From Phyllosticta citribraziliensis (lineage: Eukaryota), in assembly GCF_038025025.1 (NCBI RefSeq), contig NW_027117346.1:1550001-1614000 (forward strand): a stretch of 64,000 nt of DNA, read 5' to 3'. A model generated the notes under the pieces. It did no database searches, was not told the DNA's origin, and worked only from the letters and a program-made list of their open reading frames with translations. Numbering within the stretch: the first letter of the stretch is position 1; each line of letters opens with the position of its first letter. This document shows, in pieces, positions 1,741 through 41,300 of the stretch. The position numbers and the translations under genes are program-made.

Positions 1741-4557
1741 ATTGGTTTGTAGGTGCTAGATAGAACAGCCTGGGTGTCTCTATCGTCATAACGATCGCTA
1801 AAGACGGGATGAATTTGTTTTTGGCTCAGTGGCGTGGCATGTCATGATATGACGACGCACACGCACATGAGATGGAGTCTGGCAGATGGACACGGCCGCA
1901 GATATGGTATAGGCTTGATGCTTCTCGGAGTCGTTCTTCGCACATTTTGTACTTCTCTCGCTCAAGAGGCGGATGCTTTGCTCTCTTCCATTTCTTCTGT
2001 CTTTCGCTTCTCCATGTCCCCCCTTTCCACATCTTCGTTTGCTCCTATGTCTCTCTCGGTCAAGGTGTCTTTCGCTGCATCTTCCATTCAAACATTCCAT
2101 CACTCGCTTAGACAGATAGCCGTATATGCTTGTATCTTTGCCTAGGCGCCCTGCTTTTGTCTTTGTCCTTCCCCATCCCCCTCCCCACATTTGTCTTTGT
2201 ATCTTTCTGTGCATACGTTTCACTCGCTTGTTCCCGTCACTGGCTAAGCAACCTTCTATCCCCTCGTTAGATCTCAGCTGAGCTGGAATTTCGTCCTCTC
2301 CAACTTTCGCTTTAAGAGATAGGGCGCTATGTAGTATTATGAGAATAGAACTTTCTCACTGATCAAAAGTTTCTCTTCTTCGGCACGTGCGTCCGATGCC
2401 TTGGAGTACACTTAACGCATGGTATCGGAAAATCTCTGCTTCATTGATTGAAGTCATTCGTGGGAGGTAGTAGGTACAGAGACACACGGCGTGGCATTAA
2501 CAAGACACCCCACTCCCATCCACTTTCTCGTCACGCTGCATACCACACGCGTATATCCTTCCACGACGCGTCCATCATAGCTAGCGTATTGACGTCACGA
2601 ACAGCGGAGATACAGGGGTTCTCACAGATAAACAGCCAAGTCAGAAGCTCCATTCCACTGCTCGCCCCCGCTATGCTGTGGCGGCATCTGGACTCGTCCA
2701 TCCAGGCCTGCAAAAGCCCATTTCGCGGCGCGTGTATCATGTGTCGCGGCCACCTGGTCCGAGAAGAGGGGCTCCGGTTGTGGGCCAGCCAGACAGGCGT
2801 GGGGATCGTGGTCACCAATGACCGCATCCCAGCCCGGTTCGGTCCGCTCCTTGTGGAGGGAGTGGGGTGCTGAGTAGCGTGGAGATTCATGACACGACGG
2901 AAAGCTTCTTAATGGACGATGGATGTGCTGCGCTGTCATGTGGTCTTTGTGACGACTCGATTGCGGTATATCTGAGGGGCTCTTTTCACAGGATCAGCGG
3001 AAGGTAGAGCGTGCTGTGGCTCGACCCGGCGCGGGTGCTGGATGTGGCGCGTTGGCTTGCTTCGTGGGCGGAGAGGGTCGCGTGGGCGCGGAGACAGGAG
3101 GAGGAGAAGGAGTACCACTTTCCGCGTTGAAAACTTCGATGACGACTGGAATGGAAGACGGTGGTGGAAGAGCGTAATCGGTAATCGGGGCAGACAAACG
3201 AAGAAGATGGTGGAAAGGCAAGTTGTAGTCCACAGATTTCGGCGAGGGCGCGCGTTTGGAAACTGTCTCGCGTTGCCGGTGGGTGCTGTTTGTTTTGTTG
3301 ATTTGTTTGACGTCTGCATAATGCCAACCCTGTCGCACTCTGCGGCGCTCGCTCGCGCTCTAGTCTGCCACTGTCGTCTCAGGTGGACCCCCTCGCTCTC
3401 CACGCTTTCTTCTCAGTCCGTCGACGTCGACCTCATACCTACACATCACGGCCTCCTCTCCCCGCGGACGAGCACGCGACCACTCTCCTTATCCTGCCGT
3501 GACATGCCCAGAAGCCTGTCGACCTAACCTCCACCTCCTCCGTCTTCCAATGCAACATGGATGCTCCACGGGCATCCCGTCACCATTGCTATTCTCAAAT
3601 CTTCCTCTTCTGGCGCGTCGGCGCGGCAGACAGGGAGCATCCATGCCGTTCATGCGACGTCCCTCTTCAGCCTCGAAAGATGGGATCCCGGTGTTGCTGC
3701 ATGCAACGCCGCTTCGGAGGCGTCTTTGTGCCATGCGGAGCAGCAGTAGCGGCAGCCATATGGCGTCACGTTCGTACCAACCACTATCCGGTTTGCGCCG
3801 GCTTGTTGGATGTTGTCTGGATATCTGGCTGACTCGTTTCTGTCACTTGAAGCCTGCGCTACGTGGGAGGGCAGTTCGGCCGTAGAGAGACGGCGAGAGA
3901 GCGCTCATGAAGCTGATTATGGGGTGAGAAGGTGGGGTGTGGCGATTTAGGTCAGGAGATTGAAAAGGTGGTAGAAAGGCGCCGTGGCGATGTAAGTGGC
4001 GTTTTCTTGCGCCCGTCGTCTACTCACGACGAGCCTGACAGATAGCAAGCGCCTACGCAGGGGATCAAAGAGAAGAGATATCTTGCAGCACTGCTGTCAC
4101 CTCCAGGGCGCATTGCATGCCACAGCTAGAGGGATTGTTGCTCATTGCTTCACTCGCGCCGAGGGAGCGGACATCCTGCATTGCAAAACGCTTCGAGGTC
4201 AAGAGTCCCGTATTCATTGATCAGTGCTCAAGAGAGGCTAGCCAGTAAGCAACCGCCCACACAGAGAAAAAACCCACGAGACCCAAGTAAAGCAAGGCAA
4301 GTACCGATCCAACCGCTTTTCAAATGTCATCCGAGCAGAGCAAGACTTTTTGGGAAACCAGGTCTGGAGACGCCCCCATCCGACGTGCCTGGTTCCTCTT
4401 TTAATGAAATTGACTTTGTCGTTGTGTTCGGCAAGGACTGTCCTATTGTCGAAGAGAAGCCTCATTCTTTTGTGGCGCCGAGCCAACAGGTTCGGGGCTG
4501 GGGTGTTTGGTTGGGTTCTGAATGGAGTGTCAAGTGTTCGGGCAAAAGACTCAATGC

Positions 4558-5354
4558 TCAGACTTCTTCGACCAAGTTGTTCTCCCAAGCCGAAACGTCC
4601 GAGTCGGCTTCGCTGGTCACCTCGTCATTAGCAGCTTCGTTCTCCTCGTCGTCATTCTCGTCAGTCGTGATCTGCTCCTCTTTGATGTAGTTGGCGATCT
4701 TGGCGCTAGCAGCACGGCGGGGAGTAGAGCGGAAAGCAGTCGTCTCAGCAGGGCTGGCGGTGTCAGCGGGAGTTGGGTATCCCACACGCTCATTGACGCT
4801 GCCGTTGGCCGTGACGCTCTGGTCCTCGGAGCCGTTGGGAAGGACACAGGTCGTTGCAACATTCTTGTTCGCCCTCTTCTTGGGCGTTGGGGAGCCACCA
4901 CCAAGCTCCTTCAGCTCCTTGCGCGTGCTCGACGGAGCTGGCGAGTCTGAATCAGAGCTGTCGTCGAACCTCTTACGCTTCTTCGCAGAGCGGGGAGTCG
5001 CCTTCGGCTGGGGAGTGGCCTTGGGCCTGGCGTTGGTGACCTTGACGGGAGTCGTGGTAGCAGAAGTACCGCCAGACTTGGTGGCGACGTTCTTCTTGAT
5101 TTTTCCCAGGATTTCTTTGATCGCGCGTGCGGTCGGCTTCTCATCGCCATCACCAGCTGCAGCTGGTTAGCGAGACGGCGGAAATTTGTGAGTGAGGCAA
5201 CTTACGCCAGGCATCGACCACCCTCTGCGCGTCGACGGCGACCTGATGGGTGTTCATGATGGTCACAAACAACTGGGACCCAGTCAGTGGAGTCTGGAAG
5301 GGAAAGTGAAGAGCATACCGTAACTTTCTTGTCCGAATCCCAACGCACAGGCAT
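4558..5354 (-). CDS. Small Myb/SANT-like helix-turn-helix domain protein (cluster gene 1), about 233 aa, 3 exons
   Basis: Exons 5354-5319, 5272-5206 and ~5156-4558, with GTATGC/GTAAGT donors, CTGAC/CTAAC branch points and CAG acceptors. Translation: MPVRWDSDKKVTLFVTIMNTHQVAVDAQRVVDAWPGDGDEKPTARAIKEILGKIKK, then a K/T/P-rich tail with KKRKR and an acidic end. Domain call is by pattern recognition. Confidence 0.8.
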
Positions 5355-8353
5355 TTTGACGAAGTGTAGTGAGGCTGTGCAGGTCAGCTTGGATTGTTTG
5401 CATTGTGTCTCACGTGCGAGGATTGGGGAGTTTCATGGCAAGCATTGGGGTGGGAGCGACAGTCATGTGAAGTGACTGCGCAACAGCCATGCCAAGGTTT
5501 GCTTGAATGTGGATGTCACATTGTGAACGGGAGTTGGACATACCAATTGAGAGGAGCTTTGTCCAAGTGCTGTGAGCAAGATGGTTGATGCTGACGTGTG
5601 CAAGGTGGTGTTGAGAAGGTCGGAAGTTGAAGTGCGGTGGGCGGAAGAGGTGGAGGTTGAGGTCTGGATACGCAGCAGAGCGGAACTTTAAGGTGAAGAA
5701 AGTGACCCACGCTCCGGCGTTACGCGAATTATCCACGGTCTTGCCCCGTTCAGTGCGAGGGCGCGTCCTACCACCGCGTTTTCTACGGCGCAGCGGAAGT
5801 CATGGCCTGGCAGAGGCTGGCAACTCACAAAGACAGGTTCCGCAAGAGCTTCTGTATCTTGGGGATGCATTTCAAAGTATAAACCAAGCCGGGGGAGCCG
5901 ACTGAACATTGGCCTGGCAACTCAACCTCGACCTACTGAAACGCTGGTAAGATGGGGAATTGCGAATCATGATTGCAGCGACCTTTGGCACTTCTAGCAT
6001 CAAAGTCAGCGACGAAAGCCAAACGTGCAGATGGGCTATTGAATCTCCCGATCATTGAAGAGAATCGCGTGTCAAGCCAGGGGCGCACACTTCGGTCATG
6101 GCACAATGTGTGCTCGCGTAGCATCATACGGACTTCAAGGCGCTAATTTATGTGCACTCTGTATCACTCTCCGGACGAGTCCAGGCTTATCATCAACTCT
6201 AGCTGATAACCACTTTGATTGAGATGACTCTTATTTGAGTGTACAAGGAAAGCCTTGAAGGGCCAAGGCTCCCTGCACGTCACACCTGGAGTGGTCGTCG
6301 TAAGTCCTATGGAGCTTCGGAGGAATTTGTCAAAGCTTACGGACTTCCACAGAAGATAATTCAGCCCATTTATGATACCCGACTAACATACCGAAAACGC
6401 AGCATCAGAGGAACGGAAAAAGAGGAAAAAGACCCCAATTTGAAAGGTCTTCCTTGTAAAACCAGTTGAGGAGCGCAAAATGGACAAAAAGACACAATAT
6501 TGACAATGTGAGAAGGCCTACCCTTCCTTGAGATAGATGAGGACAGGTCAAGAGCAGTCAAAAGATGTGGGTTGTCGTAAAGCACAACCCCAAACCACTG
6601 CTCGGCAATGCGGGGCAAAGTTAACGAACACGACATGTATGCCGTCAAAGGCAAAAGTAAAGTGGGCACAGAAAGTAAATGTGCCAGGCCAATCAGATTG
6701 GCGTCGGAGATACAGAAAGGAGGCAAGTGTGCCCATCATGCGTGGCGTGTATCATCAACGGCATGGGTAGGCGCGGAAAGTGCAAGAGAAGGCTGGAAAT
6801 ATGCACGTTGTGAGGACGGACAAGCTGTGGTCGTGCACAGCGGAGGAGGAAGATTGGTAGAGAAGTTGGCAAAGACTTCGAGGATGCTGTCAAGACCCAC
6901 CCGGCGCCGTATTTCTCCGGATTCGCGACCAAGCGGTGCACCGTGTCAAAGTACGTGCAGCCGGCCCTGGGCTTTGTCCTACGCATCTGCAAGCGCCCAA
7001 TCTCCTTTGCCTCCTCCTGCACATCTCTTTTTCCTACGCAGCCAACTCGCCGATCTGTCACATCTCGCCGACGGGATGGCTGCACATCGAAACAGCTCCT
7101 TTCCGCAAACGCAAGCCCTCGCATCCAGTCGTTCCACCGCGACATGTTTTAAGACGCTCAATGTGCGGTCGGCCCGTCAGGGAACTGCTGCTCTCCCGCC
7201 TCTAGCAAGGGTCTGATGTCCGTAAACTTTATTAGCAGTTCAAGGGGCCGTTGCATTGGCAACGGGCGCAAGTCATGGCCTTTTGGAGCTGGAACTCTAC
7301 GTGTTCATGTGTACTCAGGATCTCCCACCACCAAATTTCTATGGTGAACGGCGAATCCCACACCAGCCGCCGTGAACTTTCAGTTTGCACAAGAGAAGCT
7401 TTTGGGCCGTAAGCCAGGATCCCGTTGCTTTTACGCCAGACCCTGGTGCTCCTTCCGCCCCATTCGGTTGGGATTCTTTCTTTTACGACAGACCGTTTGT
7501 CTGGAAATTTTCGAAACACCAACGCACTGTCTCCATCGTGATCTGGATACATATTTTTTGTTTTGTAATATCTCTGGCATAAGCATCGCTTTTGCCCGAT
7601 TTTCTCTTTTGACTTCAGATTGATCCACTTGCTTTGACCGTGGGCAACGAGCGCAGTGTGAAGAAAGTAGAAAAGAAGATCAGTGTGTGGCACGCTTCTG
7701 CAAAGCTTTTGCAAGGCCTTCCAAAGCTGGTTCTCAATGTTGAGTATCTAAGTATCTACACTCATCTGCGACAAATCGTTTTCCGATGAGTGAATTTCGA
7801 CCGCGAAGTGGACATCCTTGAAGGGTGGTCAATGATCACAAGTCCTGCAATTGCTCCTCCAAAATTGAACTCGCAGTCGCAGCTGGGTGCTCCATCGCAG
7901 CATCGTGGTTGATTCGGCGTGCCAATTGCACCAGAAACAGTAAGTTCATCAGACCCAAATGATACAAAGCAGCAAGACATTCACATTGAAAGCTGAGTTG
8001 CAGAAATCATGGAATCGCATTCATCATTTTTGGTGGTCAGAAGCCCAGGTGCGAACTGGCCCTTTTCCAACCCCACTGCTGCCGATACCGCAAGCAACAT
8101 ATGTGCTTTTGAGGTTGCCAGAGGAAACCGTGCAAGTGTTCCCAGGCTGAAATCAAACAATTCCGAGACTCCGTTACCGAACCGTCCTCCAGCTCGATTT
8201 GCTGGCAAATGGAAACTTAAAGACGCACTCCTGAGTTGTCGGCGACCACGTTTTGTAGACTCCGATAAATCCGCCCCAGAACTCCACCGAAAAAAAAAAT
8301 TGAAAATTGAAAACGTTCCAGAGTCGCATCTCTACTCGATCGTGTGGTAATCA

Positions 8354-9153
8354 TCAAACCTCCTGGTATTCCTCGGAAACGTCGTTGGAGAGAGCGCCAG
8401 GGTTCACGAAGCCAATTTCGCTGTAGTCGAAGAACGTATTTTCGTTCTGCGCCACAATGTCAGAATCCCAGGACGACGGCGTGGCAGCTGCGGAGGAAGA
8501 GCTGTCGAGCTCCAGCTTGATAATTGGAGACATGTTGCCAGCAGTGCTCTTCTTCGACTTCTTGGAAGGCGACTTCGCGACCCTTCCAGACTTGACACCT
8601 GCGTAATAATTGAGAACAATGAGCAGAAAGGGGGGCGTAGAGGGACTTACGATTCTCGGTAGACGGCGTAGCCTTGGGCTTGCGGGGAGTCGAGACCGCC
8701 GACTTCGGGCGCGTCACTGGCATCTGACGACCTTCGTCCACAGCCTCTTTCTGGAGGAGCTTTGCCTCCTTTCTGGCATGGCGGAATCGACCCTCAATGG
8801 CGTCGTAGGTGGCACCCTGGCCGTAGTAGTAGGCGACCTTCTTGAAATCAATCTGCGGTGAAGCGGACCCTGGTTAGCAAAGCCGATCTTTTCTTTGCAT
8901 ATTGTTGAATGTGTTGATGCCAGTTCGGCTAGTTCGGGCAGTTCAAGTGAGGTCGGGCAGTACAAGTGGGTTGGAGTTCGAGAAGACCAAGTGAGTTCGG
9001 GCAGTCCAGGTGAATTCGGACAGACCAGGTGAGTTCGGGCAGATCAAGTGAGTCCCGGATAAGAAATTGTAGACTTACATTGCCTTCTGCGGAAGCACAC
9101 ATAGCAGCCAACAGGCGCCTGTAGGATTCGGGGGTCTTCCAATCGATGGGCAT
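8354..9153 (-). CDS. Small Myb/SANT-like domain protein (cluster gene 2), about 173 aa, 3 exons
   Basis: Exons 9153-9079, 8852-8651 and 8598-8354 join in frame. Translation: MPIDWKTPESYRRLLAAMCASAEGN|IDFKKVAYYYGQGATYDAIEGRFRHARKEAKLL...TPRKPKATP...VKSGRVAKSPSKK...EEYQEV*. Confidence 0.85.
8931..9050. repeat. 19-bp degenerate minisatellite (6 units) inside intron 1 of cluster gene 2
   Basis: Units resembling AGTTCGGGCAGWYCARGTG start at 8931, 8950, 8975, 8994, 9013 and 9032. Confidence 0.9.
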
Positions 9154-11378
9154 GGTGAATTGATGTTTGAGGCTGGAAGTTTTCAGTATGGAGAAAGGCG
9201 TCTGGATGTGATGAGAGTAGTGGTTGTAGAGTGTTGTGTGATCGCGTGAAGTGATTGTGGGATGTGGGAGGTCTAAGCTAAATACCCCTACGACGGCAGT
9301 GGATCCTGCTCCCGGTTGACGGGATTGGCAGACGGGGACAGCTCTTCCCACAACCACACATATCACCGACAAGTCCAGAGTAGCCTCACAGTCATTTGCC
9401 TCGCAACACCAACCACTGCCAAAGACCGCGTATCCTACGTCATGCAGGGGTCATTGGCATGGCTCTGTCGAACAAAAAAAGGTAGCTCGCGTCTTCCTGC
9501 CTCGAATTAACGCGAGAGCGCGTCGCGGGAGCCTCCGGGTGTCCGCGGGAAGTGCACGCATATCTGCCCTGATCTCATTCTGAACATTGCACTCACCCTA
9601 AACTACTCCTACTGCGCTAACACCCTGGTCGGGCTTCGTTTTGGTGCGAGTGCGACACATGCGATGCGGGCATGGGTCCTCCCGTTTGGTGGTGTGTGCC
9701 ATCCTTGCAGTGCCCAAGGTCCAAGGGTGCCTTGCATATGCCATTGACGACGTTGTCGTGCAACATGGATTGTGAAATCGACACATCTTACAATGAGTAT
9801 TATCTCATCCATTGTGCGGCATTCGACTGACCAAATGAAGAGGCGAAGACTAGAGGACTCTGTAACACTACAGCCGTAAAGCACAGTCAGAGTCCGTTAC
9901 ATCAATCATTTATTACAAAAAGTTTCCTCTGCTGAAATTCAAATCTTCGAGCAGATTCAGTCCACACCTACTTCAATGTCAATCTCTTATTCTCAGCGTC
10001 ACCAAGGCACAGTTTTTCTAATATATCGCCAGGCTCCAAGACAAGGCACTTGTGAGCAAAGTCCCCATTCTACCAACGATATATACTTGAAGAGATTCAT
10101 ATGTTCAAGAAAATCTCGACTTCACTGTTACGGTTTTGACGATTGACGACTGATTGATAGCATTTTCCCTTTGTGTCCAACACTCATTTACCTACTTGCT
10201 TGCCTATTCAGGCATAGCGCTTTTCTACTCTAGTTTAGCCTTTATCATTTGCAGTTAGCGGCCGCGGCTCACCAAGCGTCTTAATGCTTCGCGAAGCCTG
10301 CGACCTCCAAAGAATCAACTTTTACTTCATCTCCATCCTCGCTCTTCCTACAGGCAGGAGATCTCTGAGGATATGGGAGCGAGGTGTCATGGTGGCGAAG
10401 TTACGCAAAGGTGTTGAGCTCGCAGCCTGAAGATGAGCCAGCAGCAACATCCATCCTGAACCCTACCCAGTTGTCGAAAAGAAGAAGTCACAGAGCTTGG
10501 GATGTCCCTCCGTTCCTTCGCTACGACCACACCAAATTTTGTAGCTGCCGCATCGTATCAGACTTGACAGCTCTCCAAGGAAAAACAATGCGGTAGATGG
10601 TCTGGAATTATCGAATCGCTCCCAAGAAACCCAATGGCCCAAAGAAAGTAGAAGGAGGCAATGCTTCCCCGGTAAAGGAATATCTTTGATGGTGGTTGGC
10701 AAAAGAATGCACTGCAGAGGTCGACCCAATCTGACAGCAACTCAAATTCCATCAGGTCGGCGGTAGGCTGAATGAAGGGAGATTCTTTTTGGGACTTTAC
10801 TCAAGTGCAAAATCTGCGCGTCAGTGAAGTCGCCTTGCTGGAAAGCAAACGTTGAGAGAAAGTTCCATGCGTCGATCGCCGAGAAGAACAAAGGATTCTC
10901 GGGTGCCAACGGCGCATGCACTGCATAGCTCCATTGTCAAGAAGAACAACAACACTCTTAAATGTCTGCGACATTCCATTCTTTGATGTCTCTTTCAAAG
11001 CTGTGCTGCACAGTCTTCAAGCAGTTTGACCAATTTTCGCGCAACGGCGACAAGCAAACTCCGTAATCCGGGTCTCTGTCTCTTAGGCACCGTTTGTTCG
11101 TTTGTCTTCCATCTCCTTGTAGAATTTGCACCGATTCTTTCTTTGATACTGCGCATTCAGAGCGCAATGAAAAGATCACGCTCCCACAGTCATCGTGTCT
11201 GTCAACCTGTTCAATTTTAAACCTCTGGAAATACAGGAGACTGGAGCTCAACGCATCATCCCTCAAGACCTTTGCCATTCGCAGAACGTACCTGATCTAT
11301 TTTGCTCTTCCCGAATACCGTCGTCGTTGCTTCTGTCCTTTTGCGTTTTCATCGACTCGGAGGTATATCCGCTTCAAG

Positions 11379-12011
11379 ATGCCGACGGACAAATCGAATG
11401 CCGATATGCTCTACTCGATCCTCAAACAGTTGGACCTGAAATATGTAAGTAGCCATTTCGCTTTCGCTATTCCGAGCGCAAGCAGTCTGCTCCCGTCATC
11501 TTCGTTTCTGCATCTTTTCCCAATGTCTCTCCATCTTCTCCTAACACTATGTCTCCCCTAGATCGACTGGAAAATCATTGCCGAGGAATGCAAAATCTCG
11601 AATGGTCATGCCGCCCGTATGCGATACCACCGCTTCCGCCAGACCATGGAAAACATCCAGCCCTCCAAGCGGGGTCCTCGAGCGCCCAAGGGCTCCTCCA
11701 AGCGCCAAAAGCTTTCCAAGTGCAAGGGAGCTCTGAGCGATGACGACGACGAGGACAAGTACTTTGTGAAGCCGGAGGAGGAGGACAGCAAGCTCGGCAT
11801 CAAGGACGAGCCCAAGACCGAAGCGTGGAGCGACGACGACATTCCGCTCTCGAGGGTCCCGCGCGTCAAGCGGGAGATCAAAGAGGAGACCATGGAGGAC
11901 CTGGATCGCGAGGTCAAGGCTCCAGAGCGGGAGATGGATGTGGAAAAGGATGCGGAGCCGGTGGTCGAAGCCCAGGTCTTGCTCAAGAAGGAGCCTCTTG
12001 TGTGGTCTTGA
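11379..12011 (+). CDS. Small Myb-like DNA-binding domain protein (cluster gene 3), about 171 aa, 2 exons
   Basis: Exons 11379-11444 and 11562-12011 (intron GTAAGT...CTAAC...TAG). Translation: MPTDKSNADMLYSILKQLDLKY|IDWKIIAEECKISNGHAARMRYHRFRQTME, matching the fungal Myb-like 'IDW..A......AARMRY.R' pattern, then a basic and acidic tail. Confidence 0.9.
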
Positions 12012-13402
12012 GGTACTGTGTATTTATTCGGTTGTCAGCTCAAACCCCAGGCTCAGGTATCTGGGGGAAAGGTAATGGTGTTGGCGGTGTGGGGTTTCAA
12101 ACTTGTTTGGCCTGGACAGGCCCTGGGTTGCGAAGCGGAGAAGGCGTTTGTGGAAGGCACATGGATTGAATGGCAAGAATTTCTGCTTGAAGCAGCGATA
12201 TCGAGACTGGGAAGAAAGTCCCTGGCGTTGTCAAGACGTAGACTTTGCGCTGCTGATTGGAAATGTAGAAGTGGTGGGCAAAGTGGGCTTTGCGAGCCGA
12301 CACTTCGCTGCTCTTGAATTCTCCTTCCCTCTGCAAACAGTGACTGTCTTCCTGACTCACCAGTGGGCCATACCCTTTTTCAAATTCCCTGGCACAGTGA
12401 GTGTCGAAAGAAATGAGGGAACCCCGGCAGTGCGAGTGCATCTAGGGAGCATCCATTTACCGCTACAGCTGCGGTTAGGGAGCAGTGATCCATTGCTGCA
12501 GCTAGATCCAGGAGGTTAGTCTCATCAAATATGTTCCCTTGCTGAAATCTCTGCCGCCCTGTCATTTCGACATTTTGTCGCCATGTGCTGAGGTTAGTCC
12601 AAAGAAGGCGGTTGCTGCCGTTGGCGTCCGTCACGTCCAGCGCCAAGAAACTACAAACCTATTCTTTTCAACTCCAAATCTTTCCACTTCCACACCATGA
12701 CACAGCCCAACATGTATCTGCTACTGACCAATTGTGGCTGTGGATCTAGAGGCCTTTTGCTCCAGAGCATATGGAGAATTCGTTTCCTCTCACTCGCCGC
12801 GATGTTGCGAAAGGCTAACGCAATCTCAGTGACCGCGAATGAGGCCTGTCGCCTGCGTACCTCAAATTCGCCCCGAAGTCCCAGCTCCTTCTCGCATCCC
12901 ATCTGACCCTGGGTTCCGCTCACGACGAATGCTCCTCGTCACCCCGCACGACCGTCGGTGTTACTCGCAATAATACCAAGATCCAAGCACTGGGCTCCAC
13001 AACATTCAAGAAACTTGCTCGGTACCTTTTGGCCACTTGCTTGGCACCGCATGATGAAGCCCTTGTCTCGTTCGTTTGAATCAATTAGCCCCTTGGTGGT
13101 TGTTGAAACAAAACCCAATGTCGCAACTCGTCTCTGATCCCTTGGTATTCAGAGCAGGAGATATTGTTCTTTTGTGACCTGTCGCTGACTCTCAAAGAAG
13201 TGCAGGTCCTAGCGGGCGGACGAGCATTGAGCAACGAACAAACCTTTCTGAAACGAGTGTGCCCCGAACTCCTCCATGCAACGCTTTGAAGCTGTCTCGT
13301 TTTGTTGCAAGTCAAAATTTCAGCACCGGTTTAAAGCTGCGCGAAACGAAAGGGGCTTAGCCCTTGTCAAGGTGGCCGACGAGGTGGCCTAGTGCTTCAA
13401 GC

Positions 13403-13423
13403 GCGGCGGCGGCGGCGGCGGCG
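13403..13423. repeat. (CGG)n microsatellite
   Basis: About 6-7 tandem CGG/GCG units. Confidence 0.8.
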
Positions 13424-15122
13424 ACGGAGGGAGGTGGCAACTGTGGGTTGCTGGAGTCTGGCCCTAGAGCCTCATCGAGATTCTAGACAAATTTGGAGTG
13501 GAAGCGTGAAAAGATCAAATTTCACGGTCTGGAGTTGGAAACGAAGGTTGGGCGTTTGGAAGACGCCCCCACTTCGGCAACCCGCTTTTTCCTTCCCGCA
13601 AGCTGCTAACCGGAACCTAACCACCAACGACATGCTTCGACCACACACAACGTCTCGACCTACAGCTCTTCCATCCGGCAAAGCGTCTGCGTTCAATACC
13701 GGCTCTTCAAGACAACCTTTCCGTCATTGACAGTTGATGTTGTTGAAGATGACACTTCCGAAGCAAAATCCTAGGAGCTGTTGGCACAGAGACCGACGCT
13801 CCAGCGAGCCCCCCTTCCCACGGCATCTTCTTTCCTGTTGTCAAATTCTTTCAACTTTTATCAAGTCCACCTCCCTTGTTTTCATCTCTCGCTTTCTTAT
13901 TTAACACTATGAGCACGTTTGTCACTTTGAACTCGAGCCATCTATTGGGGATTCGTCCAGAGCGCCAAGGAACCTGCTCGAATCCGCCAGCCATATGATC
14001 TTTCTCTCTTCCGCCCCAAATTCTGAAACTTATTTTGCAGAAAAACGCTGACCGGGGGCGTGAGATGTTCTTTCCTTGCTCTCATCACTCTGCCCCGCAT
14101 GAGAAGCAGCGCTTCGCAAAGGATCTGGATGTCATGATGTCTTGGAAAACGCGCGCGCTGCTTTGCGGTAGTAAAAGACAGTATTGCTAAACCAACGTCA
14201 AAGTTCCGAAAGAGTTATTTCCTGAAATGATTCTGGCCGTTATTCTTTCATCAAAGGGCTGTTTCCCAGACATTGTGGAAAGATTGTTTGTCCAAGAAGC
14301 GCCGGTGACACTTACCACTGACGGCCGCAAAGAACTCATTGCAGCTCGACAATCGGAAGTACCTATTGCTTAACGCCATACCGGTAGGTAGGCAGCCTTT
14401 ATGGTGTTGATACAGGCGCCGAAGTGCTGCCGCACCGGAGGTTAGACGGCGGTGTTCAAATGGGTTCACTGCCTCTTGCTGGACGCTCTGCTGAATGCTC
14501 CCGAATCACATTCACGCAGCCTCTCCGTTCAGGCTTCGGCATCGGATTATCAACAAGCCGTCATCGCTCCCGGTGATTGAAGGTGGTGTTCTATCGCGTT
14601 TGTTGTCAATCTCTCACCACCACACTTCTCACCTTACCCGCCTCGTGTCTTCTCAAACTGCCTTTCACTCGCATTGCATCACGCTCTTGTGTGGCTCTGA
14701 GACATTACTCTTCGCAATTCCTAGCAGTAAGTGCCTTTGCAAGAAACTGGCTCTCATCACAATCCTCTCACCCGCCTTGCGGCTCCCGCGGGAGACTCAC
14801 CATGAGACCAAGAAGCGCTGACTTCCGCAATCTCTCCCTGCTGCACTCCCTCTCAACCTCTTCTTGGCAGTGCGTTGCGGCCCATTATTGACTCAGCTAA
14901 CAACAACATTTGCGCCTCTTCAGCCGATAGCCTGCAGGAGTGTCGCATAGCTACGCCTGGTCGTACCGCTTTGGGAAAACTTGGAGAGACCACCCAAGCT
15001 CAAAAAGAATACTGGTCACCTCATTTCTCAAACTCCACAACTCTTGGAGCCTCACGGTGGTTGTCGCGACGACACAGCTCTGTTGTGCGCCAAAAGTCCA
15101 AGGGCCAAAACGGATCTGCGCA

Positions 15123-17724
15123 ATGTCTGGGGGACAACGTGCCCCCCGCATGCGGGCAATGGCCAACCTGGAGCCCGGTAAGCCTTCTTGATTGTCGCAA
15201 CGCCGAGCCCTTTTTCCATTGGGAGACTTGAACGACTATGGCCAGGTCTTCTCATGATCTGTCGTTGAACGTGGCTGCTTCTCAATCGAGTACGTCGTTA
15301 GACTGATATCATTGTTCTGCAGTGCCCTCTACGTCGTCGCGCGGTAGGACGATGACTCCAAGGAGAAACGCTACGCCCAATACCTTGATGTCGAACAAGA
15401 AAAGTCCTGCCCCTTCTTCTGTGCCGAGCAACATGTCCGCTACGGCGCCTACACCTTTCCAGGACAAAGATGATCGAGGTTCCCCAAAGGAGCGTTTGAG
15501 CTCTACCAACGAGACGGCTGAAGATGCCGAAGGAAGTGTATATGGGGAGACTGCCGATGGACATCCTGAGCATAGCGATTCAGAAGCACAATCCGACGTG
15601 GAATCCGAGCCGGGACGCGTCGTCTCGGTCAGCCGCTCCCAGATCAAGTATGGCCCAAACCACAACGGTGGTCTGCCCGTGGCGGGAGCGAGCAGCCAGA
15701 ACACCGCCGATCAATCTGATGGACATGATGTTGGCCAGCCCGTGGCGGAATCCAGCAGCCAGGACGTCGCTGGTCTCAATGATGGCCAGAATGACGAGGA
15801 GGAAATCCTTCTTGGGCGCGATGCTCCTCAGAATGTCAGATGCCTGCCCTGGCGCACCAAATTTCGGATCGCCAAGCGGACACTCATCAGCTGGGACGGT
15901 AGGTTTCTTCGGTGCGGACCTCGTGGATGAGTTTACTGACAAAAGTCAGCGGAAATGTACACCCATTCGTTGCTGTCGTTGCTCTGGATCATGGAGACAT
16001 ATGATTACCCAATACCATGGCAGGAGATGGCGGCTTTGGTAAACCCCGGGGCCACTGGCGAGGCCTTCAAGCAAGCCATGGTCAAGTTGAGGAATCGCAG
16101 AGTTGCGGAGGGACTGAGAGTGCCGCCGCCGAGGCCCAGCAAAGATCATCCGCGCTCTTCGTGCAAGTTGGAGTTGGCGGAGATGATGCGCACCGCTGGA
16201 ATGAGCTCTGAACCTTCAGTCCCGGAGTATGGAAGTGGTGCGTTGACGACGAAGGAAAATCCTTATGTTGCCGAGCTTCGTGCATCCACCCAGCCAGGCG
16301 CGCAACACTCAACCCGGAATAAGCCTCGAGCTACCCACCAGGTGTCCCAAGTGAGAGAAGAGCTCAACTCTCGTCGCCCAAGCTACTTGCCAACAAATTT
16401 TCACCCTGACAGCCAAGTTGAATTTGAGGATCTCTCGGTGGTCCACTCACGCCCCTTCACCACTGCTCTTGAGCCATACCAGCCTGCGATCACCAAGAAC
16501 CCCAAACCAAAGCTGATCTTCGTGGCCCACATTGGATCAAAAAACTCCCGTCTCCACTCCACTCGCCTAGACCAGAAGCTCATCTCTGAAGTCGCCAACA
16601 ACGTGGTCAACGGACGCTTCGCCAAGCCAACGGTCCCCAACCTTGTCCTTCTCCTCGATACGGTCCCTGCCGAATTCAACACCGAGGGCTTGGAATCCTG
16701 CCTTGAAGAACTTGGCCCCGAATTCACGATGGTTAAAAACTCTCAGCAAAAACGCAAGCGCAGCATTGCGAGCTCGGGCAGTCCACTCATGTCACCAATG
16801 TCGCCTTCAGACAACGTAGGACTTCTCACAGCTTTCAACCTCGAGCACCCGGAGCGTTCAAACGCAGAGGACCTCGATCACACAAACCATTCAAGTGGAG
16901 ACGCGGCCCCAAGCTGTCTGTTCCCAGAACCACGTGAGCCCGCCTCTGCGACGCAATGCTCCAAGAAGCGCAAGATCGACGACACGGATTTTGGAGATGG
17001 CATAGATGCTGCGGCCGATGCCGAGATGATGCTCAACCCGGCTTACGCGGTTTCTCCGGGCACGTATTTTCGCCCCCCTCCTTTCGTCCAGATGTTGGAC
17101 ATCAACATGTCCTCACGCAAGAATTTGAACGTGGGGCTTTCGTACTCGCCGACCCGCCAGCCCCATGGCCATGCGGAAGATTCTTTTGGCGATAGCATGA
17201 TGCAGGCGGACACCGACCAAGCGATGGCTTCTGTACCGGACATGGACATCAACGCAAGCAGTGGTACAGAAATGGACATGGACATGGGAATGGGAATGGG
17301 AATGGCGTCTGTCGGCTTCAACTACGCAGAGCAGCTGGGTTACAGTCAGGACACAGGTGACCGTTTCAGCTACGAAGGTCCATTCATGGGTGCCTGCTCC
17401 GATTTGGACTTGACCCTCGACAGCGCCACGTCTGAACAGGAGAGGGCTCTGTTGTCTAGCACTTCTGAATGGCGCTCCAACACCAGCCTCTTCGAAGTCA
17501 GCTCCAGCAAACGCCGTCTGGCCAGCCTCCAGCCTGTTCCGGGCGACAGCGACTACGTCGACTTTGAACAGCTCAGTGAGAAGTTCCTGGCCGAGAATCC
17601 GCACCACAAGGATCGGGGCATGCTCAACAAAAGGACTGCCGACGAGCCTGTCTTCGTACCACCTTCACTCGCCGACGAGGAGCTGTCTCGCGTGAGTTCG
17701 CAGGACGACAACGAAGATTTGTAA
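15123..17724 (+). CDS. Large, mostly disordered protein with an internal Myb/SANT-like domain (cluster gene 4), about 790-800 aa; start uncertain (15123 or 15352)
   Basis: ORF 15322-15930 joins ORF 15955-17724 through intron 15899-15949 (GTAGGT...CTGAC...CAG), giving ISWDAEMYTHSLLSLLWIMETYDYPIPWQEMAALVNPGATGEAFKQAMVKLRNRRVAEGLRVPP. NLS-like KRKR and KKRK are present. A possible first exon 15123-15177 is in phase. Confidence 0.75.
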
Positions 17725-19224
17725 ACGGCATTCTCCCGGCCAGGTCTTCATTGCTCTCTCTCAACAAGTGAGCCCTTTTTGAACCGTAGCACTGCCTCGG
17801 TTCCTTTTCCTTCAACCATTTGCATTTCCTTCAACGTGCTCTTGGCCTACCAAGTGCACCTTTCATTCAATTTCACTTTTCGTTCGACTTTGAGTTTTCA
17901 TTCGGCCTGCACATTCGGCCTTGCTCTGTGGCATTCGGCCCATCGGAATCGCCAGGTCGGGCAGCAGGGGTCTGCATTTTACACTACTCACCAACACAGT
18001 CCTGAAGGACTCTCTGGTAGCGCCATGGAATGTCCCCGTCTCCAATTGCGGACAACGACTACATTCATCACGGCATCATGATGTCGGAAGCCAACAAATC
18101 TGGACACGGAACAATACCAGGCCACTTCCTTTATCACTGGACTCCGAAAGCACGCAACTGCTGGACTTCACCAAACTACTTTTCGATGAAATGCGCTTCA
18201 CGATCCCTCGACCTTTCGTTCTGCACAACAGATTCTCCACTTTGCTTTATACCCCGGATTGACGATCCCATGGCACGACACCTCGACTGTACTGGTTGCG
18301 CTGCTATTCGCTCTCCGCGAGTCGCAGGCTGGCAGGAATACGGAGGCCGGTGCTGACACTTTGCTTACCTTCTGCTTTCTCTTTTTCCACTCAGTCCCTT
18401 TTTTTTCCCTCCTAGGATCAGCGCATCGGTCGGCTGGCCAGTTGATTCAAGTGCTGATCAGCCCTCGGGCTGGCTGGCTAGTCGGCTGATAGGACCCATG
18501 AAGCGGTTACGACACGGAGACACTGCGATGATGCGATTAATGATTGCTGCGTTAGATAGAAAAATTAGAAAAGCCTTTGGCACCAATGTTGGTTCTTATC
18601 AGATTGGTGAAAAGGCGGAACGCTCAAGGAGCCGCAACAATGACTGACCCTGATGCAAAGAAGAGGCGGCGAAGACAAAGCCATTGTTCCTTTTCGAGAG
18701 CACACGGTCGAGTCTGCAGCTGGCCAGCAGCGATTGCTCGGGCAACCTCTCAAACCTACGAGCGCTGATTGGACGGCGGAACTACCCCGAGTCATGTCCT
18801 CGGGCCAGTGGAGGCGGCGGATGGCCATCTCAGGCATTGCCTCGGTCCCCAGCACGAGTAAGGACGGCGAGAGAAGAAGTTTTAAAGTTGTTCAAGTCCA
18901 GATCTGGAGAGGAGCACTGCAGAGAGCCACGGAGAAAATGTTTGGCTGCGTGGCTGCAGGACGGCGGCGCCGGGAGAGCCGCAGGGTTGGCCAAAGCTTG
19001 CTATGCGGTGCTGAAGAACGTAGGTAGGTAGGTGTCAAGTTTGGCCCAGCAGAGAGCACCAGGTAGCAGACTGCAGAAATCCATAGACATTTTCCAATTG
19101 CAACCATCGATCGACACTAGCCATAAACCACCCAGCGTTAGAGTGCCCAGGGGGACCGTATGGCTAGCGCGACCCCGGTGCATCGCATCTTCTTCGCCGT
19201 GACGCACGGACGCAATCGAGCCCT

Positions 19225-19234
19225 AGAACATTCT
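19225..19234 (+). promoter_or_regulatory. Possible partial heat-shock element (nGAAnnTTCn) upstream of hsp60
   Basis: AGAACATTCT lies about 180 bp upstream of the ATG. Only two pentamer units are present. Confidence 0.3.
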
Positions 19235-19410
19235 CCAGCTTGACTTTTTCCTCCAGCTTCATTGACCAACACCATTCACCCTCTTTCTCATCTACACACG
19301 CTCTATCCAAGTCTCCTCAGACTACTTTCACAGGTGCTCAAGACTTAGGTGTCATTGTCGCCTCCTCAATTTCTCCTCCGCAACTCGTACCTTCTTCTCC
19401 ACTTACCACC

Positions 19411-21303
19411 ATGCAGCGCATGCTCACCTCGAGGGCGCGCGCCTCGGCCGCCTCTTCTCTCAGCGCCAGAAGCTTCAACCTGACCCAGCAGAGGTTTGCG
19501 CACAAGGTACGAAACCCCCATTGGCTCATTGGCCGCCGCATGATCGAATCTCGCAAGAACCGTCAGAAGCTGATACAACTACCAACAGGAGCTCAAGTTT
19601 GGCGTCGAGGGCCGCGCTGCTCTGCTGAACGGTGTCGACACCCTGGCCAGGGCCGTTGCCACGACCCTCGGTCCCAAGGGCAGGAACGTCCTCATCGACC
19701 AGAGCTACGGCTCCCCAAAGATCACAAAGGGTACGGAAGCCCGGATATGGATTACAAATGGGCAGATTCTGACGCGTCTACAGACGGTGTGACTGTTGCA
19801 AAGTCCATCTCCCTCAAGGACAAGTTTGAGAACCTGGGCGTCAGGCTCATTCAGGATGTCGCCTCCAAGACGAACGAGGTTGCCGGTGACGGTACTACCA
19901 CCGCCACCGTCCTCGCCCGCGCCATCTTCGCCGAGACGGTGAAGAACGTTGCCGCTGGCTGCAACCCCATGGATCTGAGGAGGGGTATTCAGGCCGCCGT
20001 CGAGGCCGTCGTCGAGTACCTCCGCCAGAACAAGAGGGATATTACCACCAGCGCGGAGATTTCTCAGGTCGCCACCATCTCGGCCAACGGCGACCTCCAC
20101 ATTGGCAAGCTCCTCTCCAACGCCATGGAAAAGGTCGGCAAGGAGGGTGTCATTACCGTCAAGGAGGGCAAGACGATTGATGACGAGCTCGAGATCACCG
20201 AGGGCATGAAGTTTGACCGCGGCTTCATCTCCCCCTACTTCATCACCGACACCAAGTCCCAGAAGATTGAGTTTGAGAAGCCTTTGATCCTCCTCTCTGA
20301 GAAGAAGATCTCTGCCGTCCAGGATATTGTCCCCGCTCTTGAGGCCTCCCAGCAGCTCCGCCGCCCTCTGGTCATCATTGCTGAGGACATTGAGGGCGAG
20401 GCTCTTGCCGTCTGCATTCTGAACAAGCTCCGCGGCCAGCTCCAGGTTGCCGCCGTCAAGGCCCCCGGCTTTGGTGACAACCGCAAGTCCATCCTCGGCG
20501 ACTTGGGCGTTTTGACCAACGGCACCGTCTTTACCGACGAGCTCGAGCTCAAGCTCGAGAAGCTCACTCCCGACCAACTCGGCTCCACCGGCTCCATCAC
20601 CATCACCAAGGAGGACACTGTCGTTCTCAACGGCGAGGGCAGCAAGGACGCCGTTGCCCAGCGCTGCGAGCAGATTCGCGGCGTCATGGCCGACCCCACC
20701 ACCTCTGACTACGAGAAGGAGAAGCTCCAGGAGCGTCTTGCCAAGCTCTCTGGTGGTGTTGCCGTCATCAAGGTCGGTGGCTCCTCCGAGGTCGAGGTCG
20801 GTGAGAAGAAGGACCGCATCGTCGATGCTCTCAACGCCACCCGCGCTGCCGTCGAGGAGGGTATCCTTCCCGGTGGTGGCACTGCCCTGCTCAAGGCTGC
20901 CGCCAATGCGCTCCAGGGCGTCCCCTTCGCCAACTTTGACCAGCAGCTCGGTATCTCGATCATCAAGAACGCCATCACCAAGCCCACTCGCTCCATTGTC
21001 GAGAACGCCGGTGCTGAGGGCAGCGTCGTCGTTGGCAAGCTCATGGACGAGTATGGTGCCGACTTCAACAAGGGCTACGACAGCGCCAAGGGCGAGTACG
21101 TGGACATGATCCAGGCCGGTATTCTCGACCCCTTCAAGGTCACCAGGACGGCGCTGGTCGACGCCTCTGGCGTTGCCTCGCTGCTGGGCACGACCGAGGT
21201 TGCCATTGTCGACGCACCCGAGGACAAGCCCGCTGGCGGCATGCCTGCTGGTGGCATGGGCGGCATGGGCGGTATGGGTGGCATGGGTGGCGGCATGTTC
21301 TAA
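19411..21303 (+). CDS. hsp60: Mitochondrial chaperonin Hsp60 (GroEL family), 3 exons
   Basis: Presequence [10 protein letters not shown]...[37 protein letters not shown] and a C-terminal GGM repeats tail. Two 5' introns. Confidence 0.98.
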
Positions 21304-37947: not shown

Positions 37948-40900
37948 ATGGCGTCCAGCAACGCACAACCTGGGCCTCCTCAGGTACTCCCTCAGTAAGC
38001 TCCTCTGACCCGCCACAGCCTAAATCAAAGTTGATTCGCTTAAAGCGCATCGAACCAGCTCTGGGAAAAAGCTGCCAAAAGCCTGAGCGAAGACGATCGG
38101 CAAACCATCGACGCATCAAGGGCCAACAAAATCGACGTGCTCAACGACGTGCTCACGCTGGTCGAATCGAAGAGACAACTCTGTCGGGACAAGGCATGGA
38201 GATGGCCGAAATCTAACGGAGAGCAAATCATTCTGCGCGATTTGTGTGAGAAGACTATCAGATGGGTCGACAAATTCAAGCAGGTAGGAGATGTCGCTGT
38301 GCAATACGATCCTGTACACGCTTCCTTACCATGGGCTGGCGTCCGTTTCATCCTTCAGTTGGTCGTGAGCGACTCAAGGTTATTTGCAACAATGATGGAA
38401 GGAGTCGAGGGCGCATCTCGTCTTATCACCCACTGCGCGATTCTGGAGGACCTCTGTCTCAGATCATCCTCGCCAGCAATCAGCAACCTCGCGGAAGCTT
38501 TGGTCAAGTTATACGCTGCTATCCTGCTCCATCTCGCAAAGGCAGGAAGATACTTCGGTAGAAGTACACTGAGTATGTGTCTGTTCTTCTGTTTGCTAGT
38601 CCTTTACTGGCCACAGTAAGCAGAACGTATAGGACAAAGCCTTGTCGAGACTGAAGACAGTGTCAAATCTCAATGGAATGTTGTCATCGAAGCCGAGAAG
38701 GATGTGGAGCGGTGCTTTGGAGCAGTCGGACACGAGACTTTGGTTGCCGTTGACACGAAACTTGACGACCTGCTCCAATCTCTCGACCAACCGATCAACC
38801 GAATGGTCTCTCAATTATCTGAGCTTCACGACTCTTTCAAAAAAGAGGAAAGACAAGCACTTCTTCAGTGGTTGTCCAGAATCCCCTACAAAGAGCATCA
38901 TAAGCGAATCAATGACGAACGCCTTTCTGGATCGGGGGACTGGCTCCTCAAAAAACAAGCCTTTGCGCAATGGATTCAATCCAGTAGTTCCTCAATCTTC
39001 TGGCTTCATGGTGCCCCAGGAGCTGGCAAGACGCACCTAACTTCACTAGTGATCGACCGCTACCTCAAGCAAGGAAATCGCCAATCGCCCATGGGGCTTT
39101 CTGCTTTTTTCTACTGCAATCTTGGCGAGGCAGGTCGCTCTAGCCCCGAGGAGATCCTGAGATGCCTTCTGAAGCAACTTTGCTCAGCAACAGCCAAGGA
39201 GCCTATTCGGGAGCCAGTCGCGACCACTTACAGACGCAGGAAAGAAGAGGCTGATGACGATGGTGGCGATCCCTTCAAGTTATCAATCAAGGAATGCGTG
39301 AGCCAAATTGTGGCAATTTTCGACGAAAACCCCGGAATTCTGGTCGTCGACGCTCTGGACGAATGCGACCCATCTCGGAGATATTATCTGCTTGAAGCTT
39401 TGGACGAAATCATTCAACTATCGTCGAATCTTGTCAAGATCTTTGTCTCGAGCCGAAACGACGACGACATTGTTAGACGGTTGCAAAAGTGGAGAAATAT
39501 ACAGGTTCATGTCGAAGACAATGGGGACGATATCAAAGACTTCGTGAACTTAGAGTTGAGGAAAGCCATCACCAGTGGCCGCCTCCTCAAAGGCGCTGTC
39601 TCTCGACAAATGGAGAGCGAAATACGCGAAGCGCTCATCAAGGGCTCCCAGGGCATGTAAGTCTCGAATGTGTCTTCGTTTACTGGGTCACAAGACTAAC
39701 CAGGACTCCCTCAAGGTTCCTTTGGGCCAGTCTTCAAATTCAAAACATCACTGATCACCAACGCTTCAAACTCGAAGCCGACGTTAGAGCCGAACTAGGA
39801 AAGCTTCCAGACTCCCTGAAAGGATCCTACCACAAGATCTATCAGCAAATACTCAACTCCGGTCCACAAAGCAGATCATTGGCTCAAAGCGCTCTCGCAT
39901 GGATCATGTGTTGGCAAAGTTACCCAGACGCTCATAACCTTTTATCCGCCATCAAATTCAGCAGCGACGATTGCAAATATGCTTCAATGTCCGACGTGCT
40001 TGATGTGTGTTGCAACTTGGTCATACTCGACAGTCCGACGTCATCCGATCCCGGTTTTCGTTTCGCTCATCTATCTGTACAAGAGTTCCTCATGGACTTG
40101 GAGGATTTCACGCCATTCAAGATTCACTTACAAGCCGCGAAATATTGCCTCTACATAATGGATCTCGGCTACCAGAGGAGACTCTCTTTGCTGGGCACAC
40201 GACTTTTCTACGACCCTCTAAGCAATGCTCTTCGCTATTTTTCTACTCACGCTCGCTTCTTTCAAGACGTTTGGAGAGAAAATGACGACGTTAAATCCAT
40301 CCTGGAGAAATTTGCGGAGCTTTACATCTCAGTTCCCAGGAAGAGGCTCTACATGGATCTTCCGCCGGAATATGTTCCGCTACCATGTTCTGTATTATCG
40401 GCCGCATCGGTGAATCTCTCGTCTCTCGTCGACATACAACACAGCCAAGGCCGGCTGAATCTAAGTCCAGCGCAGCAATTTGAATGCCTTCGGAAATCCG
40501 CATGGCTTGGAAATTCAGACTCATTCTGGACATTCGTGCGTCATTTTGGGCTCCGATCTGCTGATCTCATATACCTGGCGGCCGACGCTGTGAGCTTACA
40601 AAAACGTCGGGACTACTGTGAAAAAGCTCGGCAACAAAACCGTCCCCAAATCATGCTTCGGCTTTTGGAGTACGACAAATTGCCATTCTCGAAGGTTGTT
40701 CTTCACGCTCTCATAAACGACCACTCATTCGCCTGTCATCTGAAATCCTATGTCACTGGTTGGGCAATAGACAATGGCAATAAGCTGTCGAAACCAAGTT
40801 CTTTCTTGGAAGTGACCCAAGGCCATAATAGGGAGGTCTTGATGGGACTTCTCGACTCAGACCTGCTGCTAAGACCTGCGGATATTGAGGAGTTGATGAA

Positions 40901-41300
40901 AGAACTACAATCGGATGAAGAAGTCATGCAGCTACTTGTCTCCAAGAAGCAATCGGTCCAGGATGCGATCGCTGCCTTTCAGGAAGATCAAGAACCACGT
41001 AATTGGTATTTCTCTGATTTGTCCAATGAAGGATTCACAATGCTTCCGGCCTTCTTCGTGGAGCTTTGGTTTTCGTTTGGTTTTCACGATTTTGGTCTTG
41101 GTGATGGCAGAACCGTCTCTGTATTGGTTTCCGAACTCCAGCAACATCGAGGATGGATCAAGCTCTCAGACGCTGGCACTGAAGTATTGAGGAGAGAAAT
41201 AAAAGCAAGGGAAATCGATGAAAACAACATTGAACGAAGCGAAGCGAGGTACGAGAAGAAGAGGAGATACGAGATACGGAACAGAAGAGGTTATAACTAA
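37948..41300 (+). CDS. Fungal NLR-like NACHT/STAND NTPase with a helical N-terminal domain (NWD-NACHT-N type)
   Basis: LWEKA...FKQVGDVAVQYDPVHASLPWAGVRFIL, Walker A GAPGAGKT, Walker B ILVVDALDEC, IFVSSR, GM|FLWASLQ and FAHLSVQEFL. Probably 3 introns. Confidence 0.88.

Follow-up and report, generated by a model that had tools for sequence, protein, structure and literature searches.

The window analysed here, a 64 kb stretch (64,000 nucleotides) of DNA from Phyllosticta citribraziliensis, holds four neighbouring genes, G1 to G4, which are probably (at roughly 65%) an ancient array of paralogous Myb/SANT-like genes, whose products would be nuclear binders of DNA or chromatin, each acting alone, and whose members would have stayed together by descent. 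The array is regarded as old and preserved because these genes also adjoin one another in very distant fungi, with their order unchanged. It most likely arose by tandem duplication, and each gene would give rise to a protein with one Myb/SANT-like domain of about 55–60 residues, in which an aromatic residue lies close to every helix and the third helix is basic; it is through this third helix that the predicted nuclear proteins would bind DNA or chromatin. Each protein would most likely act on its own, with no obligate complex, and the persistence of the array by descent may have been aided by a shared regulatory landscape, which is conceivable given that the region has few genes, that its leaders are long and that it yields non-coding transcripts.

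Gene models and the space between the genes

GT..AG splicing with the boundaries of the initial annotation recovers all four of the peptides quoted there for G1–G4, so that its claim of four neighbouring genes is reproduced; the ends of the region, 4558 and 17724, are the stop codons of G1 and G4. All four genes are covered by contigs of the runs X1–X3, which are assembled contigs that behave as spliced and are presumed to be RNA, and the joints given below are among those listed. G1 lies on the minus strand at 4558..5354 (exons 5319–5354, 5206–5272 and 4558–5156; 233 aa), with its domain at about 5080–5354, followed by a basic/acidic low-complexity tail with KKRKR, and both of its introns (5157–5205 and 5273–5318) are joined in the run contigs. 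Its 5' leader, at 5355..6140 on the same strand, has an intron at 5375–5543; the leader joints in the run contigs are 5374 to 5544 and 6283 to 6339 (both X1 and X3) and 5651 to 5715 (X3), the contig of a related organism over this leader extends to 6829 with additional introns, and the upstream ORFs are all short. G2, also on the minus strand, lies at 8354..9153 (exons 9079–9153, 8651–8852 and 8354–8598; 173 aa), with its domain at about 8748–9153 and a tail with an invariant STPRKPKA stretch; contigs of all three runs, X1, X2 and X3, join across both introns. The first of these introns (226 nt) contains a 19-nt tandem repeat of 6.2 copies (8931..9053, minus strand). The idea that this long intron holds a snoRNA or another known RNA was considered and dropped after an Rfam search, which gave nothing meaningful over 2000–19500.

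G3 lies on the plus strand at 11379..12011 (exons 11379–11444 and 11562–12011; 171 aa), so that G2 and G3 are divergently transcribed in the window; its domain, at about 11379–11660, belongs to Pfam PF22980 (Myb_DNA-bind_8). G4, likewise on the plus strand, occupies 15352..17724 (exons 15352–15898 and 15950–17724; 773 aa). Its domain, at about 15880–16122, is internal, whereas those of the other three proteins are N-terminal; after it come a conserved VPPPRP stretch and then a fourth helix, the remainder being of low complexity. The G4 intron is joined in one X3 contig of 2157 nt. The splice models thus agree with the run contigs for the introns of G1, G2 and G4, whereas the G3 intron is not confirmed in this way, since the listed X1 contig over G3 (10987–12222) is unspliced and has no joint there. 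This intron therefore rests on other evidence, namely that the Pfam domain spans the junction and that L002, L016 and L024, which represent three other lineages, have an intron at the same place.

G1 is identical (100%) to database protein P0001 (233 aa) and G3 to P0019 (171 aa), both named for Phyllosticta citribraziliensis, which means that these two models are already annotated publicly and that the description of the genes as found only by manual splicing was overstated. The G2 orthologue P0005 has 173 aa and is 97% identical over exon 2. Relatives were found for G2 (14) and for G4 (15, conserved across exon-2 residues 1–84). The tails of the proteins are of low complexity, with acidic ends, S/TPxK/R sites, an S+T+P share of 16–27% and basic runs that resemble nuclear localisation signals; in addition to STPRKPKA, the G2 tail has an invariant GRV.K stretch.

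The initial annotation had placed no enzyme or transporter gene between the four genes, and this is borne out by a Pfam search of the six-frame ORFs of at least 80 aa from 1–22 kb, in which 3 of 123 match at E ≤ 0.001: a GH18 ORF at 577–1737, G3, and a Cpn60/TCP-1 ORF at 19168–21300. The intergenic spaces are transcribed, for instance at 3371–4468 and at 12360–13547 (spliced, minus strand), and no ORF longer than 111 aa was found in the transcribed spaces; because of this, and because no Pfam family matched, the possibility of a further protein gene within these transcripts was dropped. The transcript at 12360..13547, between G3 and G4, is a candidate non-coding RNA on the minus strand, seen in X1 and X2 contigs, with a GT..AG intron at 12815–12860 and no ORF longer than 61 aa.

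Domain family and fold

G3, searched as P0019, matches PF22980 with 56.7 bits (E 1.5e-15), its residues 4–52 aligning with model positions 2–49 of 50, where the curated gathering cut-off is 27 bits; its exon 2 by itself reaches 38.9 bits, and the relatives of G3 and the linked G3 gene of L002 also match. For G1, G2 and G4, searched as single sequences, Pfam yields no family. For PF22980, no match at E ≤ 1 was obtained with P0001, P0004, P0005, P0009, P0010, P0014 or the Aspergillus steynii protein P0018 (0/7), nor with G4 exon 2, and none of 14 G4 relatives matches a Myb family at E ≤ 0.1. Below the threshold, exons from further members of the array match PF22980 (E 0.0018 and 0.061), PF13921 (0.0096, 0.04 and 0.22) and PF23082 (0.099), and some of these exons match unrelated families just as weakly.

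With shallow alignments, full-length or of the domain, hhalign found no significant pair among the four families, and the first local HMMs gave no cross-match among them. The alignments were then enriched with relatives from metagenome contigs, upon which hhalign gave probabilities of 95.7% for G1–G2 (E 1e-8), 94.1% for G1–G2b, 97.8% for G2–G2b, 91.9% for G4–G2b (E 7e-7) and 30% for G2–G4, G2b being an array member of the locus groups described below. None of these five scores was reached by column shuffles (0/60), a lenient control; the spliced relatives had been picked by best HMM score, which favours likeness within a family and not the scores across families. The enriched comparison of G3 with each single family is weak (1–5.5%), and the observed score was reached by 3/60 shuffles for G1–G3 and by 9/60 for G3–G4. 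When G1, G2, G2b and G4 were merged into one profile, it aligned with the G3 family at 43% (E 2.4e-4), with 56 columns in register from end to end, a score reached by 0/200 shuffles. G1, G2 and G4 are, by these profile comparisons, remote homologues of one another, and the superfamily that they form is probably linked to G3.

Gene structure and residue pattern were also compared. The introns of G2 and G3 fall at one aligned column, both in phase 0, while phase 1 is seen in every loop intron of G1, of G2b and of the G2 of other lineages; the G1 exon sizes of 36 and 67 nt recur in relatives from five locus groups. In the superfamily alignment the aromatic positions are a W before helix 1, W/F/Y at the I-D/P-[WFY] start of helix 2, and F/Y or L in helix 3; G3 is without the first conserved W, and the third helix is Arg/Lys-rich in all four proteins in the merged-profile alignment. 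The pattern of about 55 aa that the initial annotation had described as common to the four proteins is therefore beyond chance, and becomes visible once the alignments are enriched.

The AlphaFold2 model of the G4 domain (pLDDT 84, pTM 0.66) has helices at residues 2–16, 23–30, 36–52 and 68–81 and is a confident model of a three-helix helix-turn-helix bundle, while the model of G1 is poor (pLDDT 48, two helices). Foldseek of the G4 model against the PDB gave no match at E ≤ 0.001; compared with solved structures the model is a generic helix-turn-helix, its scores to Myb proteins being no better than those to unrelated helix-turn-helix proteins, and the alignment profiles of G2, G3 and G4 found nothing relevant among PDB sequences. 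In the protein Atlas, the G1 and G2 domains lie near a cluster with PF22980 in 17% of its members, at scores (0.79 and 0.82) below the meaningful level that serve as leads; a structural neighbour of G1 named 'AT hook motif protein' is likewise a lead. The earlier reading, in which all four proteins have one three-helix-like domain of Myb/SANT type, is supported by the Pfam match of G3, the model of G4 and the remote homology of G1, G2 and G4, but as a statement about the structures of G1 and G2 it went too far.

Linkage in distant fungi and its explanation

The evidence on linkage comes from thirty metagenome loci. Those with long loci among them form five DNA-distinct groups, and the others are short or stand singly. 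G1(-), G2b(+) and G2(+) occur in 5/5 locus groups, and 4/5 have G3 at a distance of no more than 10 kb, B2 being the group that lacks it. A G4-like gene is present in one of the five groups, where the order is G1-G2b-G2-G5-G3-G4, which includes the full G1-G2-G3-G4 order; G4 was not found in groups B1 and B2. In group D, G3 is inverted and stands on the opposite side of G2, still within 10 kb. The window has neither G2b nor G5, and its G2 points the opposite way from that of the other lineages; no extra array copies were found there by the first HMMs or by the enriched ones. When six-frame ORFs of at least 40 aa from the whole window were compared with the loci at E ≤ 1e-5, the matches were confined to pieces of G2, G3 and G4, and in the reverse search the clear matches of the loci landed on G1–G4. 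The flanking genes differ between the window and the locus groups.

Identity to the G2 domain of the window is 44–64% in the loci, 52% in an Aspergillus homologue and 65–69% in Botryosphaeriaceae, which by this measure gives the five groups roughly the distance from the window that Aspergillus has. A flanking kinase is common to 4/5 groups and was not seen in group D; since four groups share it, the five may be one clade, in which case the deep comparison is in effect one between the window and a single clade. Linkage and order are conserved, though not completely, in distant fungi, in line with the anciently duplicated, physically linked set that the initial annotation had proposed, and the five locus groups with the array are new here.

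These observations have also been considered under other explanations. The adjacency might be due to chance, with four unrelated small disordered proteins having a loose amphipathic-helix pattern in common; the pattern as originally described was indeed loose, neither profiles nor HMMs gave anything significant at first, and a Pfam family exists for G3 only. However, the enriched profiles tie G1, G2 and G4 together far above shuffles, linkage of these genes recurs in five further locus groups, and exon sizes and intron positions are held in common, so that chance is already contradicted by the profiles and the linkage and is highly improbable. It is also unlikely, though far from negligible, that the array is a deeply conserved set, stable in order, of fungus-specific Myb-like chromatin proteins that form one regulated unit, a heteromeric complex or a coordinated developmental or stress switch whose members bind together or are deployed in sequence and whose genes are linked by selection for joint regulation, a module of the kind proposed in the initial annotation. 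Such a module would fit the retention of linkage and gene order at roughly class-level divergence while the flanks differ, the position of G3 in group D, the divergent G2 and G3, and the gene-poor setting with its long leaders and non-coding transcripts; but members have been lost (G3 in B2, G4 in B1 and B2, G2b and G5 in the window), and the linkage of tandem paralogues can last through descent alone.

A different question is what the domains bind. They may be SANT-type modules for proteins or histones, or the proteins may bind nucleosomes through their tails, in which case they would be abundant architectural chromatin proteins and not sequence-specific DNA binders. The small one-domain proteins with long basic S/T-P-rich tails, the invariant STPRKPKA and GRV.K of G2, the AT-hook lead for G1 and the generic fold matches are consistent with this, but the Arg/Lys-rich third helix of all four proteins fits DNA-binding Myb domains better than acidic SANT domains, and Pfam calls the G3 family DNA-binding, which is a name and not a test; an architectural role is accordingly judged doubtful. 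An old array of individually acting DNA- or chromatin-binding paralogues is the explanation that we prefer.

Significance and comparison with known systems

Censuses of transcription factors and chromatin proteins in fungi depend on domain databases, and because no Pfam model matches G1, G2 or G4, such censuses miss three of the four families, although they are conserved across distant filamentous ascomycetes. Conserved clusters in fungi are mostly metabolic, and a small array of regulator-like paralogues with a stable order at roughly class-level divergence is unusual among them; it is, moreover, a compact target for experimental testing. Should the proteins turn out to be ordinary DNA binders that act singly, three new Myb-like families would be gained, along with a better-defined wider superfamily of PF22980; if they form one regulated unit, three of its four families have escaped domain databases and transcription-factor censuses.

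The nearest known family is PF22980, of which G3 covers nearly the whole model above the cut-off; the merged G1/G2/G2b/G4 profile aligns end to end with the G3 family, while the relatives of G1, G2 and G4 differ in having no match as single sequences. Neither PF22980 nor Myb_DNA-bind_8 is mentioned in the literature searched, and the available portions of the literature on tandem SANT/Myb paralogs, chromatin and microsynteny hold nothing on this array. Compared with canonical Myb/SANT repeats, such as the solved domains of MYB1 R2R3, Cdc5, Rap1 and the plant GT-1 trihelix, the array proteins have one domain and no tandem repeats; there is no above-threshold sequence match to these families, and structural scores are no better than those for unrelated helix-turn-helix proteins. 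In insects there are lineage-specific clustered arrays of single Myb/SANT-like (MADF-type) genes, with an N-terminal, Trp-marked three-helix domain and disordered tails. Likened by description, the fungal array resembles these in its clustered paralogues, its one N-terminal Trp-marked three-helix domain and its disordered tails; it differs from them in that it is small (4–7 genes) and in that its members are ancient and not recent expansions.

Gene models, transcripts and introns

Gene models were built by joining GT..AG introns on each gene's own strand. In this way, G1 (minus strand; exons 5319-5354, 5206-5272 and 4558-5156), G2 (minus strand; 9079-9153, 8651-8852 and 8354-8598), G3 (plus strand; 11379-11444 and 11562-12011) and G4 (plus strand; 15352-15898 and 15950-17724) give proteins of 233, 173, 171 and 773 aa, respectively. 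The four peptides on which the initial annotation based its four-gene set were each recovered from these spliced models, which confirms that observation. The long exons were used as queries for protein database searches; the database proteins P0001 and P0019 are exactly G1 and G3, respectively, over the full length, both recorded as uncharacterised proteins of Phyllosticta citribraziliensis, and P0005 (173 aa) is a G2 orthologue, at 97% across exon 2. For G4, 15 relatives were found, with similarity mainly in residues 1-84 of exon 2. Another database protein, P0023 (331 aa), has 100% identity with the last 331 residues of G4 (16729-17724); this record points either to a gene model that was truncated or to a start within G4.

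Transcript evidence was taken from contigs of three runs that carry no RNA label on record, with joints as listed. The two introns of G1, the two of G2 and the single one of G4 are each spanned by an exact joint in these contigs, with GT..AG ends and all on the gene's own strand. For G3, the sole contig listed (10987-12222) is unspliced and keeps the 117-nt intron, which could reflect intron retention, pre-mRNA or an accident of which contig was listed; if retained, the intron would cut the G3 protein short at 60 aa. Since the listed contig is unspliced, the G3 intron is based instead on the Pfam domain that spans its junction, the same intron in the public gene model and the recurrence of its position in three other lineages.

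The run contigs also show that the G1 leader (5355-6848) is at least about 620 nt long and bears an intron (5375-5543, minus strand); in a related organism, one contig extends the leader to 6829 with two more introns. Its ORFs are short upstream ones only. Several intergenic stretches are likewise transcribed without sizeable ORFs. Within the array 12360-13547 (minus strand, spliced at 12815-12860), and next to it 3371-4468, are candidates for non-coding RNAs. Intron 1 of G2 (8853-9078) is 226 nt, long for a fungus, and contains a tandem repeat (8931-9053; 19-nt unit, 6.2 copies); its counterpart in modelled relatives is likewise long, at 233-417 nt, and Rfam gave no match for the G2 intron.

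Domain identity and homology between the families

Judged by its sequence, G3 is a clear member of PF22980 (Myb_DNA-bind_8), a Pfam family that is named but unstudied: it scores 56.7 bits, where the cut-off is 27. G1, G2, G4 and their relatives have no Pfam family match at E<=1, and profile searches of PDB sequences found nothing. AlphaFold2 modelled the G4 domain confidently (pLDDT 84), as a three-helix bundle with a fourth helix, while the model of G1 is poor (pLDDT 48). In the superfamily alignment, a W is conserved before helix 1, helix 2 opens with I-D/P-aromatic, and helix 3 is rich in Arg/Lys. Basic runs, for example KKRKR, occur in the tails of the array proteins, as do S/T-P-x-K/R sites and acidic ends, and the STPRKPKA stretch of the G2 tail is invariant.

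Comparison of the four families by profile, with few close relatives per alignment, gave no significant link. The domain exons of relatives were modelled by enumerating all GT..AG introns and keeping the top family HMM score. Exon sizes of 36 and 67 nt are common to the window G1 and its modelled relatives, G2 relatives have the 75-nt first exon in common, and G3 relatives share the intron directly before the I-D-W motif. With the enriched alignments, hhalign gave 95.7% for G1-G2 (E 1e-8), 94.1% for G1-G2b (G2b being a further paralogue in related loci), 97.8% for G2-G2b, 91.9% for G4-G2b (E 7e-7) and 30% for G2-G4; for each pair, 60 column shuffles all stayed far from these scores. G3 is weak against single families (1-5.5%); the merged G1+G2+G2b+G4 profile matches the G3 family at 43% (E 2.4e-4, 56 columns), a score reached by 0 of 200 shuffles, and the introns of G2 and G3 share one column and one phase in this alignment. 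Such shuffling is a lenient control, and the choice of spliced models on HMM score may inflate within-family likeness. Sub-threshold Pfam matches to PF22980, PF13921 and PF23082 came from exon fragments of further array members; some of these fragments matched unrelated families just as weakly. G1, G2 and G4 are unrecognised remote Myb-like families, and the earlier reading of a Myb/SANT-like fold spread by ancient duplication is largely supported.

Linkage in other fungal loci

Metagenome contigs were scanned with the G2 family, which yielded 30 loci. Apart from short or single loci, DNA similarity sorts these into five groups holding long loci, namely A (L001, L002, L005), B1 (L007), B2 (L008, L010-L013), C (L014-L017) and D (L018-L028). 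The loci were searched with four domain sets and enriched HMMs. The orthologues proved to be linked there as well: G1 accompanies G2 in 5/5 groups, on the opposite strand at about 4.5-5 kb, with G2b between them in all five; G3 lies within 10 kb in 4/5, in D with inverted orientation and on the opposite flank of G2, and was not found in B2 by these searches; and a G4-like gene with the family's VPPP stretch occurs only in group A (1/5). The order in group A is G1-G2b-G2-G5-G3-G4, which the window order G1-G2-G3-G4 matches, but with G2 inverted and G2b and G5 absent.

Several members of these loci have features of their own. G5 (L010 12838-13752, minus strand; L008 13301-13660; L002 11877-12035) starts with MPSW and is the array member that comes nearest to Myb in sequence (PF13921, E 0.0096); in groups A and B its place is between G2c and G3. 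In the G4-like gene of group A (L002 18781-19471), the helix 2-helix 3 part is present twice, near-identical and about 330 nt apart, which is an internal duplication. In B1, the sister group of B2, the G3 copy (L007 14246-14728) looks degenerate: residues conserved elsewhere have changed, and its spliced model is poor, at 37 bits.

A left-side protein kinase is common to groups A, B1, B2 and C (41-47% identity between groups), so these groups may form one wider clade; it is not present in the 64-kb window, and no window genes other than G1-G4 were found in the loci. The G2 domain of the window has 44-64% identity with the loci, 52% with an Aspergillus homologue and 65-69% with Botryosphaeriaceae, from which we infer a roughly class-level distance between window and loci.

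Surroundings and proposed working

Within 1-22 kb, only 3 of the 123 ORFs with 80 aa or more have Pfam matches (G3, a GH18 chitinase on the left and a TCP-1 chaperonin on the right), whereas the other 42 kb is dense in ordinary genes, with matches for 21/97 ORFs of at least 130 aa, including cofilin, Get5, RsmB-type methyltransferase, RNase III, MFS, two NACHT genes, MINDY, Gcd10, cyclophilin and MBOAT; G1-G4 therefore occupy a gene-poor 17 kb. The two NLR-like NACHT-type genes of the dense part lie at 38044-41297 and 53814-56419, one with NACHT_N and NPHP3_N, the other with NPHP3_N, NACHT and ankyrin repeats. The first and enriched HMMs detected no extra copies of the G1-G4 domains in the 64-kb window.

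In the literature searched, the conserved linkage of the array is not described. General knowledge of Myb/SANT proteins suggests that the array proteins would be nuclear and would contact DNA or chromatin via helix 3, and phosphorylation would regulate their tails. The complex or developmental switch that the initial annotation proposed for the four genes is a less likely reading. Set against known families, the array is one PF22980 member together with three unrecognised remote Myb-like families.
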